Shown here: positions 31,864-39,646 of the stretch, piece by piece | How the letters are laid out: every line of letters starts with the position of its first letter | How positions within the stretch are numbered: position 1 is the stretch's first letter | From: Coriobacteriia bacterium | GTDB lineage: Bacteria; Actinomycetota; Coriobacteriia; Coriobacteriales; UBA8131 | NCBI GenBank assembly: GCA_009783085.1 | Contig: WRHU01000004.1 | Span: forward strand, 76,380-140,379 | DNA: 64,000 nucleotides | Direction of reading: 5' to 3' | Made by a program: the position numbers and the translations under genes | Notes under the pieces: generated by a model | Told to the model about the DNA's origin: nothing | Database searches by the model: none | What the model saw: only the letters and a program-made list of their open reading frames with translations

Positions 31864-32481
31864 CTAGTCGTCCAAAGTTTCAATGCTGGGCTTGAGTATG
31901 CCGTAGCTACCGTCTTTACGACGATACATTACGCTCACCAGCCCGTCGGTCGCATCGCTGTACATAAAAAAGTCATGCCCGAGCAAGTCGATTTGCAAAA
32001 GAGCTTCTTCCTCGTTAAGAGCAATAAGGTCAACCTCTTTTATGCGAACAACTCGAGCCTCGTCCTCACCAACCGTAGTAACGTGCTCATCTAAAACGGG
32101 CAAAACGCTTGCAGGCGGGGCATCGCTGCCAACCACGTTTTCTTGAATCATTTCCTGCAGCTTTTTGCCGTGGTGACGGCGGTCAACAACACGGGTTTTA
32201 TACTTGCGAAGCTGACGCTCGACCTTTGCAGCTGCAATGTCGATGGCAGCATACATGTCTTCCTCAGCTTCTTCGGTTCGAATAATATGACCCTTGGTAT
32301 ACAAGGTGACCTCGGCAATGGCTGGATTGGGATTGGAGGGGTTTTTCTCTTTTCGTAAGACCACCTCTGCCGACATAGGACTAATATCAAACACTTTTAC
32401 GGAACTTCCGATTTTCTCCTCAACATAGGAGCGCAGTGCATCGCTTACCGTCATTTTACGACCGGTTACCGTGATTTCCAT
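31864..32481 (-). CDS. hpf: Ribosome hibernation promoting factor (long HPF/RaiA)
   Basis: MEITVTGRKM start, DMYAAID...KVERQLRKYK and a C-terminal EEALLQIDLLGHDFFMY domain. Confidence 0.95.
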   Translation of the reverse strand: MEITVTGRKMTVSDALRSYVEEKIGSSVKVFDISPMSAEVVLRKEKNPSNPNPAIAEVTLYTKGHIIRTEEAEEDMYAAIDIAAAKVERQLRKYKTRVVDRRHHGKKLQEMIQENVVGSDAPPASVLPVLDEHVTTVGEDEARVVRIKEVDLIALNEEEALLQIDLLGHDFFMYSDATDGLVSVMYRRKDGSYGILKPSIETLDD

Positions 32482-32723
32482 ATGAGTTCCTTCCTCGCGG
32501 TTTACAGGACTGTGGCGCGCCAACAGAGGTGTTTGCTCTGGTGGCGCAAGTGCTACGTTTCATGGTTTCGTTTTTCGTAGTTCCATGATAGCAAATTAAG
32601 GAGCAACACACACATTACGCTGCATTTTGAAACCATTTTGAAAGAATTGAAAATGAGAAAACTGGAGCCCCTTGCAGGGTGCGTAGCAAAAAGCGCAGTT
32701 TACAAGATGGCTTACGAGATAGC

Positions 32724-33488
32724 TTACGAGATATGCCCTAAGAAGTTTTTTGTGCGCTCATGGTGGGGGTGGTCAAAAACCTCCTCGGGACTTCCTTGTT
32801 CCACGATAACGCCTCCGTCCATAAAAATGACCCGGTCGGCCACGTCGCGGGCAAAACCCATCTCATGGGTAACTACCATCATGGTCATGCCACCTTGCGC
32901 AAGCTCGCGCATAACATCGAGCACGCCTCTTACCAGTTCGGGGTCAAGGGCAGAGGTTACCTCGTCAAAGAGCATGACGTGCGGATCCATTGCCAAGGCG
33001 CGCGCGATAGCAACACGCTGTTGTTGTCCGCCAGAAAGCTGGGCGGGCATATAATCTATGCGATCGCCGAGACCAACTTTTTTCAGCTGTTCTACGGCTA
33101 TGCGGTCAGACTCCTCTTTGGAACGCTTGAGCACTTTGCGCTGCGCAAGCATGACGTTGCCTTTGGCAGAAAGATGCGGAAACAGATTAAACGACTGAAA
33201 CACCATACCAACGTGTTCACGTATTTTGTTGATGTCGGTTTGGGGGTCGGTAATATTGGTATCCTCAAACCAAATGGTGCCCGAAGTTGGTTTTTCGAGT
33301 AAGTTGACGCAGCGCAAAAGGGTTGATTTCCCTGAACCAGAGGGCCCAAGAATACAGACCACCTCTCCCCGCTCAACCTCTAAATCAACGCCTTTAAGCA
33401 CCTCAAGCGTGCCAAAATACTTGTGCAGGTTTTCAATACGCACAACAGGTTTGTTGTTTTTATTTGCGCTGGTTGTACGAGGGCTCAT
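32724..33488 (-). CDS. Polar amino-acid ABC transporter ATP-binding protein (GlnQ-like)
   Basis: Motifs [28 protein letters not shown] and [11 protein letters not shown]. Confidence 0.95.
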
Positions 33489-34982
33489 CTATTCCCCACC
33501 CTCTTTCTTTGCGTTCTGTGCTTTCTTTACGTTCTGTGTGCTTTTGTTGCTCGGTGCATTTAGCGCATCTGAAGTATCCGGCGCGCCCGGCGGATTCGGC
33601 GCACCCAGCGCACCCAGCGCATCCGGCGCATCCGGCGCATTAGACTCGCTCGTAGAAAACAGGCCTACGCGCTTTTTCTTTTTGGCAGGCGGTTCAGAAG
33701 TGGTGCCGTCTGCAGCTGCAAGTTTTTTCTCAAAGTTTGCTATGACCTTAGTAAGCGGCAACGTAACCACCAGATAGTAACACGCAGCCACCACGTACGG
33801 TGTCATATTGCCCGAAACCGCCGCCATAGACTTCGCAAACATCATCATTTCCATAACGCCTACCGCAGCAAGCAGCGCAGTGTCTTTGTAGAGCAAAATA
33901 AACTCAGACGTTGCCGTAGGAATAACGCGTCTGACCGTCTGCGGAATGATGACCGAGAACATAGTCTGAACGCCATTCATGCCCAAAGACGCCGATGCTT
34001 CAAACTGTCCTTTATGGATAGACTGAATGCCCGCACGGAAAATCTCGGCAAGATAGGCGCTCGAATTAACCGCAAGTACAATAACACCCAAGAAGTAACT
34101 GTTAAACGACGCACCCGCTATTTGAATACCAATGATGACTATGTACATCTGTAAGAAAAGCGGCGTACCACGAATAACATTGACGTAAATACTTGCGAGA
34201 AAACGCAGTATGCCAAGGCGCGACATACGTAAAAATGCAAACCCAAGACCAAAGGGTATGGCGAGTGGGAAGCCGAGTAATACTAATCCCAGCGAGCGCA
34301 GCCACCCAAAGAACAAATTGGGGAATGCGGCAACAATAAGCTGCGGGTTAAAGAAAATCCTGAGAAACAGCACTGAGTTCCACGACTCAACCCACTTTTG
34401 TCCGTCAAGCCAAGTGATAATTCGGTCAACAAGCGTGGTGCCAATAACCGTAATAGTAGGGGAATCTGCAAGGGTTTGAATGGCCCCATTCTCGTCAACG
34501 TAGCTCCCGCCGACAACATACTCCCCACCTAAAGCAGGTAGCGCAACATTGTGAACCTCGACGCGAATAACATAGTCTGTTTCAATGAGCTCTCCAAAGG
34601 TGATAACTACACTTTCGCCGTCAAGCTCATAGCTCTGCTCAACTTCTATACGCTGAGCGGCGCGGCGCGGGTCTTCTTGATACAAAATGGTCGCCTGCAC
34701 ATTGGCATTATCGGCAAACGAGGAGCCCGCAGGAAAGGTGAGCGTGACGGAAGACACCGCCTCTCCCTCATCAACCTTTGCCTCCCACGTAACCCGCGTG
34801 GGTTGACCACCAACAACACTGTTGCCGCTGGCCTGATTGGACTTAGCGGTAGTGGTAGTAACCGTTAGTGCCTCTGCCGAGTAAGATGTGGCAAGCTGGA
34901 CACAAAAAGAGAGCACCACTGCAAAGGCAAGTAGTGTAAGGAGAGGTTTCCTCCACGCCTTTGCAGTGGTGCTTCGTTTCAT
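33489..34982 (-). CDS. Amino-acid ABC permease fused to a large N-terminal extracytoplasmic domain
   Basis: C-terminal HisM-type permease (RGTPL, AEIFRAGIQSIHKGQFEA); N-terminal signal-like segment plus ~170 aa beta-rich domain. Confidence 0.88.
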   Translation of the reverse strand: MKRSTTAKAWRKPLLTLLAFAVVLSFCVQLATSYSAEALTVTTTTAKSNQASGNSVVGGQPTRVTWEAKVDEGEAVSSVTLTFPAGSSFADNANVQATILYQEDPRRAAQRIEVEQSYELDGESVVITFGELIETDYVIRVEVHNVALPALGGEYVVGGSYVDENGAIQTLADSPTITVIGTTLVDRIITWLDGQKWVESWNSVLFLRIFFNPQLIVAAFPNLFFGWLRSLGLVLLGFPLAIPFGLGFAFLRMSRLGILRFLASIYVNVIRGTPLFLQMYIVIIGIQIAGASFNSYFLGVIVLAVNSSAYLAEIFRAGIQSIHKGQFEASASLGMNGVQTMFSVIIPQTVRRVIPTATSEFILLYKDTALLAAVGVMEMMMFAKSMAAVSGNMTPYVVAACYYLVVTLPLTKVIANFEKKLAAADGTTSEPPAKKKKRVGLFSTSESNAPDAPDALGALGAPNPPGAPDTSDALNAPSNKSTQNVKKAQNAKKEGGE

Positions 34983-35064: not shown

Positions 35065-35925
35065 TTAACGCAAAGAGGGCGGTGTAACGCCAGGGAAGTA
35101 CTTCAAGAAAATAAGGTCAAAGGTGCCGTCTGCCTTAAGGTCGAGCAATGCCTGATTAACAGCAGCCTCGAGTACCGGATTGTCCTTAGAAACAGCAAAA
35201 CCATATTGCTCGCCCGTTGGAACACTTTGAATAATCTCAAGCTCTCCTGCATACTGCTCAGCAACGTGCTCGGCAGCAACAGGCTCGTCATACACAACAG
35301 CCTCGGCGTCGCCTGCCAAAACCGCAGCAATAGCTTCACTCGTTTGATTGAAGGGTTTCAAAGTGATGCCAGGGATGTTTTCCTGCGCCCAGTCAGCACC
35401 GGTAGTTCCGCTCTGTGCGGCAATAACCATACCCTCAAGGTCAGAAGCATTCGTATAGGCCTTTGACTTGAGAGATACAATCGCTTGGTTTGAATCAAAA
35501 TACGGTGTGCAGAAGTTTACCAACTTTTTGCGCTCGTCGTTAATGGTAAAGGATGAAACACCGATGTCCATCTTGCTGCCAGCGGCAACTGATGCAATAA
35601 GTGAATCAAAGTTTTGGGGCGCAAGATACTCAACCTCAAGGTCAAGCTTTTTGCCAATTTCGAGCATAAGATCATACTCAAAGCCAGCGGGTTTTGCACC
35701 ATCCATAAAAATAAAGGGTGGATAATCGCAGTCAGAGCCAACGATGAGCTTGCCCTCTTTTACCAAAATCATCTCGGTAGGAGCAGCGTCGCCACCCGCA
35801 GCTTGCGCGTCGGCAGCATCGCCATCGGTTGCTTCCGGCGTGCCGCCACAACCTATCAGTGCCAAGCTCAAAGCCATAATAAGACTCGTTAGCACGACAA
35901 GAATGCTTTTCTTTTTCAACAACAT
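35065..35925 (-). CDS. Amino-acid ABC substrate-binding lipoprotein (SBP family 3)
   Basis: Lipobox LIGC; motifs DYPPF, GFEYDL, TINDERKK, FCTPYF and GEQYGFAV. Confidence 0.92.
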   Translation of the reverse strand: MLLKKKSILVVLTSLIMALSLALIGCGGTPEATDGDAADAQAAGGDAAPTEMILVKEGKLIVGSDCDYPPFIFMDGAKPAGFEYDLMLEIGKKLDLEVEYLAPQNFDSLIASVAAGSKMDIGVSSFTINDERKKLVNFCTPYFDSNQAIVSLKSKAYTNASDLEGMVIAAQSGTTGADWAQENIPGITLKPFNQTSEAIAAVLAGDAEAVVYDEPVAAEHVAEQYAGELEIIQSVPTGEQYGFAVSKDNPVLEAAVNQALLDLKADGTFDLIFLKYFPGVTPPSLR

Positions 35926-36145: not shown

Positions 36146-37153
36146 TTAATTCTGCCCTTCATCCTCGGGCTCGCCGGCGTTTGTCGGATCGGGCAAATCA
36201 TCGCCCGTATCGACATCGCCAGGTGTCACGCCTTCTGGAGAAAGACCTAGTTCGGTGCTTTGCGCAATGATAGCCACTGAGCTTGCCACCACATTTGAAG
36301 AGATGGAACCCAGCCATTTCGCAAGAATGACGGAAAGCGTGCTGTCGTCTCGAATATTGATAAGCGCCTCGGTAAGGGCACCGGCAAGATCATCATTTTC
36401 AGCGGCAACGCCAAGGTATACGCCAATTTTCGAATCGGGAAGCAGCATGGCACAAGACACCGCACCATAGTTGCTCGACAAATACGAACCAGCAATGGCA
36501 TCGGCAGCAGCATACGCAGCGGAGCCATTCTCAACCATAGCAAAGGCATCTTCAATTCTGTCTGCCTCAATAAGAGCTTGCTCTCCAAAAGTGTTTTTGA
36601 CCGCCCAGGCAGAAAGCGAATCTTTTTGTGCGACTATTGACGTGCCGACAAGAATATCAAGATCAAGATCCGACGAGGTATTTTCATCAATGAGAGAAAA
36701 AATTGCTGGGCCACTTTCAAGGTAGGGACCAATCTCAATGCCCCTATCAAGTCTCACGCCACTTTCCTCAACGTCCATGACCATGTCAATATCACCTGCA
36801 ACAAAAAGCTCATCGGCTCTTTTGTCTGCTATGTCAACAAGCTCAAGTTTTAATCCGAGCTTGTCTGCAAGTGCAGCTGCAATATCAACATCAATGCCTA
36901 CAAGATTTCCTTTTGACAAACCAGCATACGGTGCGCGTCCGGAATCAACTCCTACTTTCAAGACGCCTTCGCTTTGAACAGCGGTTGGGGGCACCTTGGA
37001 TACCATGGTTACCGGCTTGGGGTCTGGCACCTCGTTGCAGCCAAAAAGCCCCAGTGGCAAAAAGCACAACACACACAACAATATAAGAGGCAGCGCCTGC
37101 ACTGATACTTTCTTTTGCTGCTGGCGTTGCGCCACATATCTAACCGTTGGCAT
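36146..37153 (-). CDS. Second, divergent SBP family 3 lipoprotein
   Basis: Lipobox LFGC; LKVGVD...PYAG and GIDVDIAAALADKLGL. Confidence 0.8.
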   Translation of the reverse strand: MPTVRYVAQRQQQKKVSVQALPLILLCVLCFLPLGLFGCNEVPDPKPVTMVSKVPPTAVQSEGVLKVGVDSGRAPYAGLSKGNLVGIDVDIAAALADKLGLKLELVDIADKRADELFVAGDIDMVMDVEESGVRLDRGIEIGPYLESGPAIFSLIDENTSSDLDLDILVGTSIVAQKDSLSAWAVKNTFGEQALIEADRIEDAFAMVENGSAAYAAADAIAGSYLSSNYGAVSCAMLLPDSKIGVYLGVAAENDDLAGALTEALINIRDDSTLSVILAKWLGSISSNVVASSVAIIAQSTELGLSPEGVTPGDVDTGDDLPDPTNAGEPEDEGQN

Positions 37154-37231
37154 AAAACCTACTTCCTCCCCCCACAAACTACTCGCTTAAATCGTTCTCG
37201 TGTTCTCATAAACCATATTCATATCTCAAGG

Positions 37232-37483
37232 CCCCTTCGGCTGACCTGGTCTTTGACCCCACACTCGCATACTGGAACGGTCGCTTGATACTATCTCACT
37301 ACTAGCTCTCTCGCCCGGGAAACGGGTGTTTCATCACAGGCGGTACGGCTTACCCCTAAGACGCGCCATGCTCATGTGCAGAAACCCGCACACTTACGTG
37401 GATCCTTTTGACCGCGTCTGCCATGGACTAAGAGCTGCAATACAAGGTTGATACACAGCTCCGCAACCACAGACCCGAAGGGA
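37232..37483 (-). ncRNA. raiA-motif RNA
   Basis: The minus strand carries, in order, blocks I recall as conserved in the raiA motif: GUGGUUG, GAUCCACGUAAG, UGAGCAUGG.GCG.CUUAG..GUAAG, GGCGAGAG..UAGUAGUGAGA and GCGAGUGUGGGGUCAAAGACCAGGUCA. It is closed by a terminal stem CCCUUCGG/CCGAAGGG. Recognised from memory, not from an Infernal run. Confidence 0.88.
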
Positions 37484-37493
37484 CAGACCTGTC

Positions 37494-37522
37494 ATTTTAG
37501 CAGCTTGACGGCATTTTGTCAC
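37494..37522 (-). promoter_or_regulatory. Putative sigma70 promoter of the raiA RNA
   Basis: Minus strand GTGACA-17 nt-TAAAAT, about 10 nt upstream of the RNA 5' stem. Confidence 0.65.
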
Positions 37523-37702
37523 CCCTTAGCCGCTACAAAACTGCGAGATTTTTGGCGATATATCGCGCCGAACCTTTGGGGAACCTTTTTATGGTGTGTT
37601 GCGCCGAGCTCTGGTCAAATCACGCCGAGCCTCGGTCAAATCGCGCCGATCCGCGCGACTGCCACGCATCTGACCACGCGCCGAGCCCTAGCCAATTTGC
37701 AC

Positions 37703-39646
37703 CTAGCCCCGGTTAAGGATTAAGTCCTGATACAGCGCAGTGGTTCTCAAGGACGGCAATATGCCCAGCTCCTCATGGAGAAACTCCTTGCACGCAAAAT
37801 AGGTTTCTATGGCAGAGGTACGCTGTCCCGCACTTGACTGCGCATCCATCAAGGCCCGATACACGTCCTCACGCGCGTGATCATAATCATAAGCGCGACG
37901 GGTGAACCACAAAGAGGACTGCACATCTCCCCTGCCGCTTGTAAGGTCGGCGGCAGTAAGAAGAGCATCAACAAGCAGGTTGTGTTGCCGCTTGCGATAC
38001 TGCAACAAAGCTCCATCGAGCCGAACCCCTACCAACAAATCATCGCGGTACAAACTCTCCATCTGAAACACGGCCTCAAGGCGTTGCTCACAACTGAGCT
38101 CACTACGGATTACCTTGCGCGCCTGCTCCTCAAACTGGTCAACATCGCTGGCAACCAACTCGCTGTCAAAATAGTAGTGCGAACCATTGCGGAAAAAGTA
38201 CCGCTCCTCGGCATCAGGAGAGGGGGCAAGCGTGCGGGTAAGTCGAGAGGCCGTAACATGAAAATTGTTGACTGCCCGCTCCCCTTCAAACTGCGGCCAA
38301 AATTGCTGAATGACCGTGTCGCGCGTTACACATTTTCTTGGGCTGAGAAGTATGAGAGCCAAAAGGCTCTGAACTCGCTTGCCGCGCAGGTAACGATGCT
38401 CAACGCGCGTATTGCCTCGATATATCTCAAGCTCTCCGAAAAGGCGAACATAAAGAGGTTCTTGCTCGGCACGTATTTTTGCTCTGCGGAGCGTTTTGGC
38501 GTTGGGCATTTTTACCCGTGACGGTTTGACTTCTAGTTCATAGGCGTTCGGCTCTTTTGCGCTTGGATCGAGCACTTTTGCGCCTGGGGTGAGCACTTTT
38601 GCGTCCAGCGCATGTGTGCCTGGTATTTTTTCAACCGCTTGCGCAGCTGATGTTTTCTCGTTTGTGTGTGCTTCATTTATCTGCCCTCCGCTTGCCTGCG
38701 CTTGGTTTGCAACCAAAAGTTCAACACAAGACAGGGTTTCATGCGAGCGAGCGTGCTTACCTTTCTTGAGAAGCTCCATTGAAAGGCGGGTTAGGGTTTC
38801 TATAATACGTTCGGCGCGCTTCTCGCAAGGCGCATCGCCATAGTATTCCGAAAAAACTTCTTGGATTGACGGCAATAAGTGCGCAAGCGGCATTCCCTTA
38901 AGGACAAGCTTGGTGGGCTGCTCATTATCTAGTTCAAAAAGTGGATTGAGCGTAGCAACCATCTGAGCCACATCGTCATGCACCGAAAACCCGAGCGAGC
39001 AGGCCTCTTTAGTTTCAAGCTCTTGCAGTATTGCCGCCAGCGTTGCAAAAAGACGAAGCTCGAGCGGCAAATCGTCGCACAGAAAATGCAGCGTGCAATC
39101 GAGTTGTTGCTCAGGCGTGCTGTGCATCTTGTTCAAAAGGTTAGCGCCTGCTATAAGGCAGCGGTCGGACTGGAGGTTGTCGTAGCAATCGCACTGCGGC
39201 GTCGTTATCACCAAAACGCGCCAACCTTGCTCAACCAGTGTATCAAGGTCATCTGAGAGGCGCTGCGCCTGCCACGGCTCAAGGTAAGTTAAGTCGTCTA
39301 TGATGAGCATCTGCTCGCTCACATTAGGAACGGCGTTTTTAGTGAGAAACCCGAGGAGGCTTCCTGTTTCAACCCCTTGCACAAACACCTCTGTGCTGCC
39401 ATCGAGCCAGTGAACGTTTTCATCTTGGCGGTACTTTTGAATATAGCGATACGCCAAAGAGGTGCGTCCTGAACAACGTGGCGCAACGATAAAGCTCGGC
39501 ACATCTGCCGCAAGATGAATACTTTTGGCAAGGCCATCGAAGTAGCGCTCAGCTTCCTCCTGAGCAATGCTATTGGCTATTTTATTTGTGTTCGAGCTTG
39601 CTAGCATATTTGTTTCTAGAAGAATGCCTTTGAGTGTGTCGTGCAT
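37703..39646 (-). CDS. BTAD-domain (SARP-like) transcriptional regulator with a degenerate N-terminal NTPase-like region
   Basis: C-terminal LYVRLFGELEI (wHTH start), SDVDQFE, LYRDDLL, REDVYRALM and LGILPS (BTAD); N-terminal APRCSGRTS and LIIDD. Confidence 0.82.
   Translation of the reverse strand: MHDTLKGILLETNMLASSNTNKIANSIAQEEAERYFDGLAKSIHLAADVPSFIVAPRCSGRTSLAYRYIQKYRQDENVHWLDGSTEVFVQGVETGSLLGFLTKNAVPNVSEQMLIIDDLTYLEPWQAQRLSDDLDTLVEQGWRVLVITTPQCDCYDNLQSDRCLIAGANLLNKMHSTPEQQLDCTLHFLCDDLPLELRLFATLAAILQELETKEACSLGFSVHDDVAQMVATLNPLFELDNEQPTKLVLKGMPLAHLLPSIQEVFSEYYGDAPCEKRAERIIETLTRLSMELLKKGKHARSHETLSCVELLVANQAQASGGQINEAHTNEKTSAAQAVEKIPGTHALDAKVLTPGAKVLDPSAKEPNAYELEVKPSRVKMPNAKTLRRAKIRAEQEPLYVRLFGELEIYRGNTRVEHRYLRGKRVQSLLALILLSPRKCVTRDTVIQQFWPQFEGERAVNNFHVTASRLTRTLAPSPDAEERYFFRNGSHYYFDSELVASDVDQFEEQARKVIRSELSCEQRLEAVFQMESLYRDDLLVGVRLDGALLQYRKRQHNLLVDALLTAADLTSGRGDVQSSLWFTRRAYDYDHAREDVYRALMDAQSSAGQRTSAIETYFACKEFLHEELGILPSLRTTALYQDLILNRG

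Follow-up and report, generated by a model that had tools for sequence, protein, structure and literature searches.

A raiA-motif RNA with a lineage-conserved promoter-like site and probable read-through into an adjacent binding-protein gene in Coriobacteriia

The window analyzed here, meaning the whole 64-kb stretch of DNA, contains a single raiA/ModT motif RNA of 252 nt on the minus strand (37232..37483), and we are next to certain that this element is a true raiA RNA. Our analysis favors, as a fairly probable overall reading, a raiA gene of the P2+P8 type which is read through into the adjoining lipoprotein gene SBP1, and from whose transcript a stable RNA is processed out and acts in trans. 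The copy is genuine, belongs to a known family and is mostly ordinary for that family; raiA/ModT is among the most widespread large bacterial RNAs without an assigned biochemical function, and the window copy adds no new class. The family itself, its occurrence in Coriobacteriia and its association with genes for periplasmic binding proteins and RaiA are already published (PMC10861870, PMC5737381). The tight, same-strand, near-universal raiA–SBP1 junction which we describe for Coriobacteriia may perhaps not yet be in the literature.

A preliminary description, made from the letters of the window, had proposed a raiA-motif noncoding RNA of ~250 nt and named the Rfam raiA covariance model as one means of checking it. 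That search returned a significant match far above the curated threshold: RF03072 (raiA) was the sole match in the window (cmscan at the gathering threshold, Rfam 15), scoring 165.4 bits (E = 1.1e-41) against a gathering cut-off (GA) of 101.3 bits, and the match was untruncated, spanning model positions 1 to 209 of 209. The interval that had been flagged, 37232–37522, is exactly the RNA plus its promoter-like site. A permissive Rfam scan of 30.9–38.0 kb (E ≤ 1) found no RNA family besides raiA. The source genome is a termite-gut Coriobacteriia MAG, 91% complete, and its 1.58-Mb assembly holds one raiA copy; exactly one was likewise found in 39 of 41 relatives and in all 18 of the high-quality relatives. 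The nearest loci come from termite-gut and gut Coriobacteriia MAGs, Eggerthella, Adlercreutzia and others. Bacillota and Actinomycetota form the carrier group of the family, which the host of the window copy fits, and Coriobacteriia are among the carrier classes in Soares 2024 (PMC10861870). With the raiA/ModT RNAs described so far (RF03072; PMC5737381, PMC10861870, PMC11706538), the window copy shares a full-length covariance-model match, presence as a single copy, a housekeeping-type promoter in front, an Actinomycetota host, and genes for a periplasmic binding protein and HPF downstream.

The RNA had also been described as highly structured, and its helices are backed by covariation in 30 lineage members. 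We aligned the window raiA with 29 relatives (alignment A1; 30 lineage RNAs) and mapped the consensus pairs of Rfam to the alignment columns. Standard pairs occupied 93.2% of consensus cells, a count that leans slightly toward the Rfam structure as the consensus was projected through the window's row, compared with 35–46% in a slid control in which the 3′ partners were moved by 1–3 columns. Both sides of the pair had changed at 32 of the 55 consensus pairs, and none of 500 shuffles reached as high a number. These comparisons argue that the raiA helices are maintained in this lineage by compensatory change. Covariation cannot speak on the two pseudoknots, because the partner segments of PK1 and PK2 never vary in this lineage.

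Relative to the Rfam consensus, cmscan placed an insert at 37431..37462 (minus strand; GGAGCUG...CAGCUCU). This insert, P2, folds into a 9-bp hairpin of −12 kcal/mol, and a hairpin of variable sequence occupies the P2 position in 29 of 30 relatives; the window raiA is of the P2+P8 subtype, the most elaborate one. All 30 sequences keep P1a, P1b and P1c with the GU and GGU bulges between them, G20 and the UUAGNNGUAA linker without variation, P1 reading UCCCUUCGG-GU-CUG-UGGUU ... GACCA-GGU-CAG-CCGAAGGGG. G10, U11, G14, G238, G239, U240 and C241 are equally invariant in the 30 sequences, so that the bases of the G-G-C triple are in place, and from these we infer the tertiary contacts. P8 carries an E-loop motif, with UAGUAGUGA at 37304..37296 and AAGCGA at 37286..37281.

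The cryo-EM structure of the 253-nt Ns-raiA from Nocardioides sp. Iso805N (He 2026, PMC12968392) provides a structural counterpart. By the description in that paper, on which the likeness rests rather than on aligned sequence, the 252-nt window RNA has in common with Ns-raiA eight stems including P2 and P8, the GU and GGU bulges in P1, a conserved PK1–P6 linker, G10, G14 and C241 for the G-G-C triple, and G20 and C21 at the four-way junction. The linker, single-stranded and located at 37350..37359 (minus strand), reads UUAGGGGUAA in the window and UUAGACGUAA in Ns-raiA, and the two RNAs differ in the sequences of P2, P5 and P7. The characterized Clostridial raiA/ModT RNAs are without P2, whereas the window copy has it.

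The proposal that this raiA has its own sigma70-type promoter was upheld by the comparison among relatives. The promoter-like site on the minus strand (37522..37494) is GTGACA-17-TAAAAT with a TG extension; it consists of the −35-like hexamer GTGACA (37517..37522) and the extended −10 box TGCTAAAAT (37494..37502), whose first base lies 19 nt ahead of the first base of P1. A promoter scan of 1 kb gave one match where 0.8 were expected, which alone is not above chance. However, TGnTAnnnT is found before P1, mostly 16–19 nt from its 5′ end, in 29 of 30 relatives and, at mostly the same distance, in 67 of 71 further Coriobacteriia loci which were fetched independently through the SBP1 protein, where, by our estimate, a 5-base motif would turn up by chance within 40 nt in ~3% of cases. 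The conservation of this predicted promoter, unlike the single match, is beyond chance. The fixed distance of the box puts the expected start site a few bases upstream of P1. Likewise, a single SigA promoter is found at the C. difficile raiA orthologue (Lence 2024, PMC11706538).

Directly 3′ of raiA, all relatives carry an SBP1-type lipoprotein gene, as judged by tblastn and ORF analysis, including four relatives in which SBP1 is too divergent for tblastn. Scanning one genome per species with an alignment of SBP1 orthologues (A2) yielded 80 loci, almost all labeled Coriobacteriia and covering Eggerthella, Adlercreutzia, Gordonibacter, Slackia, Cryptobacterium, Denitrobacterium, Atopobiaceae and termite-gut MAGs; the few labeled as other phyla look like binning errors. 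raiA was directly upstream on the same strand in 77 of these 80 loci, and the three exceptions comprise a contig whose first base falls within SBP1, a Brevinematales match that is not orthologous, and one unexplained case. The gap between raiA and SBP1, measured from heuristically assigned start codons in the relatives, has a median of 33 nt (range 3–129) and is no longer than 60 nt in 63 of 74 measured loci. From these loci, raiA–SBP1 is a class-wide unit in Coriobacteriia.

In the window, a 78-nt spacer (37154..37231, minus strand) runs from the 3′ end of P1 to the SBP1 start codon and contains the SBP1 Shine–Dalgarno sequence GGAGGAAG (37169..37162). This spacer is variable across loci, and apart from the Shine–Dalgarno sequence the spacers of the Coriobacteriia loci are unconserved. 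A hairpin/U-tract scan of the window spacer found no terminator and a promoter scan found no second promoter-like site, and runs of at least four T occur in the spacer in only 13 of 75 loci. One relative (locus L005 of G039, 1751–1982) stands out in that its raiA and SBP1 are 232 nt apart; this AT-rich gap is long enough that transcription could end and start anew within it. With neither a terminator nor a second promoter in between, and with the spacing short and conserved, we think it likely that raiA and SBP1 are co-transcribed from the raiA promoter. The preliminary description had left open the choice between a standalone transcript and a leader or read-through transcript; the sequence evidence favors read-through into SBP1.

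We considered the alternative that raiA is standalone, ending at or just after P1 by Rho-dependent or processing-coupled termination, with SBP1 served by a separate, unrecognized promoter and the adjacency being mere synteny. Terminators without U-tracts are common in Actinomycetota, and the 232-nt gap in the relative mentioned above has space for separate signals. The experimentally studied raiA/ModT RNAs are independent transcripts: those of C. acetobutylicum and C. difficile have their own terminator(s) (PMC10861870, PMC11706538), whereas the window raiA has no terminator and is followed by an SBP gene 78 nt after P1. Since the Clostridial RNA is self-terminated, Coriobacteriia might use Rho-dependent or noncanonical termination which a hairpin/U-tract scan would miss. 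Against this, a median spacer of 33 nt is too short for a terminator plus a promoter; an extended −10-like motif occurs within the last 100 nt of raiA and the spacer in only 4 of 75 loci, compared with 67 of 71 before raiA; and the 3′ region of raiA is lineage-invariant and without a −10-like sequence. Moreover, same-strand adjacency holds in 77 of 80 loci even though both outer neighbors vary, comFC being in either orientation or replaced and the downstream position being taken by hpf, ABC genes or neither. We therefore regard separate transcription of the two genes as unlikely.

Slightly less probable still is that raiA serves as a cis-acting leader, riboswitch-like or protein-responsive, in which a metabolite or protein would bind the folded core and control SBP1 and the genes that follow at the level of translation or elongation. 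The riboswitch-like layout of promoter, structured RNA, short Shine–Dalgarno spacer and same-strand ORF speaks for such a role and holds in essentially every Coriobacteriia genome examined, as does the position of hpf in other Actinomycetota, often a few tens of nt from raiA. Rfam types RF03072 as 'Cis-reg; riboswitch', and the 5′-UTR position was remarked on by Weinberg 2017 (PMC5737381). The order of promoter, RNA, Shine–Dalgarno spacer and SBP gene on one strand is also that of 5′-UTR-derived stable RNAs and riboswitch leaders of ABC binding-protein operons. Unlike riboswitch leaders, however, the window raiA showed neither a terminator in the spacer nor a Shine–Dalgarno-sequestering helix or other expression platform; the spacer sequence is unconserved, the raiA family is single-copy, no ligand is known for the family and none was found in vitro (Weinberg 2017, PMC5737381), and the Clostridial orthologues act in trans. 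Soares 2024 (PMC10861870) dispute a cis relationship, in part on the ground that the ORFs downstream of raiA are commonly hundreds of nt away and variably oriented; Coriobacteriia are a clear exception to this picture.

Sequestration of the Shine–Dalgarno sequence by the pyrimidine-rich 5′ strand of P1a was considered as an expression platform and rejected. Lineage-matched pairing between the two elements gave −5.6 kcal/mol for own-locus and −5.5 kcal/mol for cross-locus duplexes (permutation p = 0.2), so the own-locus duplexes were no better.

That the raiA match arose by chance or is a degenerate relic of a raiA gene is ruled out for practical purposes by the covariance-model score and the covariation, given E = 1e-41 over the full length, retention of all invariant family positions and strong covariation in the helices. 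The only hint toward it would be the MFE z-score (0.52, computed on raiA together with its spacer), which is uninformative because raiA is pseudoknotted and rich in noncanonical pairs.

Returning to the reading we prefer, read-through from raiA into SBP1 followed by release of a trans-acting RNA, we envisage the following course. Directed by the lineage-conserved extended −10 promoter, transcription would begin a few bases ahead of P1, the closing stem, and since neither an intrinsic terminator nor a second promoter precedes SBP1, the polymerase would continue from raiA into this gene. It would probably go on through SBP2, the permease and the ATPase in the window genome, and into hpf in relatives without the ABC genes. 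A stable RNA of ~250 nt could then build up once the transcript has been cleaved, or trimmed from its 3′ end, as far as the very stable P1, and the compact fold at the 5′ end may in addition shield the mRNA. In analogy to two Clostridia, the RNA would act in trans at the transition to stationary phase, and its linkage to hpf would reflect co-expression with ribosome hibernation. The analogy draws on knock-out and trans-complementation of raiA in C. acetobutylicum (Soares 2024, PMC10861870) and of raiA/ModT in C. difficile (Lence 2024, PMC11706538); on this ground, we hold it reasonably likely that trans action is the main role of the raiA RNA. The phenotypes published so far, sporulation and aggregation, do not carry over to Coriobacteriia that form no spores. 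Cultivable gut members of this kind, such as Eggerthella, Adlercreutzia and Gordonibacter, would be open to tests of co-transcription, of processing and of a phenotype other than sporulation.

KhpA and KhpB possibly bind the raiA RNA here. Both bind raiA RNAs in vitro, and they are general RNA binders of micromolar affinity (He 2026, PMC12968392), which counts against the reading given here. The genome encodes an 84-aa KhpA and, adjoining yidC, a Jag/KhpB-like protein with KH and R3H domains which was found via PF13083; a search of the genome with Jag_N (PF14804) gave no match. In this Jag/KhpB-like protein (G000 contig C5, locus L032, 1177–1893), an acidic N-terminal region replaces a recognizable Jag_N, and the KH and R3H (RLRPMTPYERRAIH) parts are kept.

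The gene content that had been claimed for the region, two SBP genes, an ABC system and hpf, all downstream on the same strand with hpf 4.7 kb further on, was present in full by domain searches, and the claimed association of raiA with periplasmic binding proteins and raiA/hpf is as reported by Weinberg 2017 (PMC5737381). SBP1 (36146..37153, minus strand) encodes a divergent SBP_bac_3 lipoprotein with a 56-bit Pfam match and the lipobox LFGC; its likely start is the ATG at 37153. Its NCBIfam matches were all far under cut-off, and its relatives in the PDB include AncQR and the BvgS VFT. The orthologues (A2) retain the Cys of the lipobox as well as GIDVDIAAALA, GPY, YAAADA..GSYL and KWLG motifs, and in many of them the C-terminus is an acidic tail in which (I/V)D(T/M)G.DLPDP(S/T)NAG is conserved. 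The Arg of the α-carboxylate clamp, whose position we presume by reading SBP1 against GlnBP/HisJ-type proteins, is not conserved among these orthologues (A2). Because of this, we rejected SBP1 as a canonical amino-acid binder and give it no ligand assignment.

The three genes behind SBP1, all on the minus strand, form the ABC system. SBP2 (35065..35925) is a canonical polar-amino-acid-type binding protein (SBP_bac_3, 107 bits in Pfam; GlnH/ArgT-like NCBIfam matches), and domain matches identified a permease (BPD_transp_1; 33489..34982) with an N-terminal DUF2808-like extension and a GlnQ/TcyN-like ATPase (32724..33488). The permease is unusually long at 497 aa, its DUF2808-like segment occupying residues 63–159 ahead of BPD_transp_1.

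The hpf gene on the minus strand (31864..32481, or to 32523) encodes a long-form HPF with the S30AE domain (Pfam) and a C-terminal domain, and its TIGR00741 match of 85 bits is above cut-off. The likely start is the ATG at 32481, preceded by the Shine–Dalgarno sequence GAGGAAGG; it lies 4.7 kb from the 3′ end of raiA, behind four genes on the same strand. A terminator-like hairpin follows the ATPase gene (32603..32623, minus strand), from a scan whose yield over 30.9–37.3 kb was at chance level (10 found, 8.6 expected), and inspection of the sequence revealed an extended −10-like TGCTATCAT ahead of hpf (32585..32593, minus strand), with a similar box before hpf in two of six ABC-carrying relatives. 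The window hpf is probably uncoupled from raiA, with its own promoter-like site after the terminator-like hairpin. Among genomes with the order raiA–SBP1–hpf, nine of ten show no extended −10-like motif up to 200 nt from hpf, a pattern consistent with a three-part transcription unit. The window arrangement, in which the −10-like box comes immediately after the terminator-like hairpin, suggests that hpf became an independent unit after insertion of the ABC genes.

A more far-reaching interpretation is that in Coriobacteriia raiA and the orphan lipoprotein SBP1 form an obligate promoter–RNA–ORF unit, ancestrally promoter–raiA–SBP1–hpf, in which SBP1 would be a dedicated partner in the raiA pathway, for example an extracellular sensor of nutrients or growth phase, or the RNA would have a second role in cis. 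We put this forward as speculative and rather improbable; if true, raiA function outside spore-formers could for the first time be approached through a consistently linked protein gene.

We compared gene layouts using extended regions of 18 relatives and the 80 SBP1-homologue loci. The order-level layout is comFC → raiA → SBP1 → hpf, and most relatives keep comFC–raiA–SBP1–(ABC)–hpf. Loci of the Eggerthellaceae type often have comFC on the opposite strand and no hpf within ~2.5 kb downstream, and SBP2, the permease and the ATPase stand between SBP1 and hpf in only two sampled families of the order (f1, f2), one of them the window's own. The typical raiA neighborhood is downstream of comFC (74%) and upstream of raiA/hpf (66%) (Soares 2024, PMC10861870). 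comFC, the usual upstream neighbor, is absent upstream of raiA in the window; in the window's genus and one further genome (G011), an adhesin with SpaA repeats and a BTAD protein have taken its place. Another contig (C6) holds a ComF-like gene that scored 66 bits, under the TIGR00201 cut-off, and has CxxC pairs and a PRTase motif; it is likely ComFC. In other classes of the phylum, raiA was found in 33 of 81 sampled genomes, with hpf directly behind it and never SBP1. As far as these genomes show, a leader-like placement of raiA is therefore not restricted to Coriobacteriia, and only the following gene differs. In these other Actinomycetota (loci L132–L159), hpf often starts a few tens of nt after the 3′ end of raiA.

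The 180 bp between the stop of the BTAD gene and the raiA promoter include, at 37562–37716, several direct copies of GCGCCGAGC.. / GGTCAAATC. Two units in perfect register 21 bp apart, GATTTGACCNRDGCTCGGCG, lie at 37602–37621 and 37623–37642, where 0.12 would be expected by chance. These direct repeats are absent in two relatives sharing the BTAD neighbor, and they may represent an array of sites bound by the BTAD protein encoded alongside, or else a duplication at this locus.
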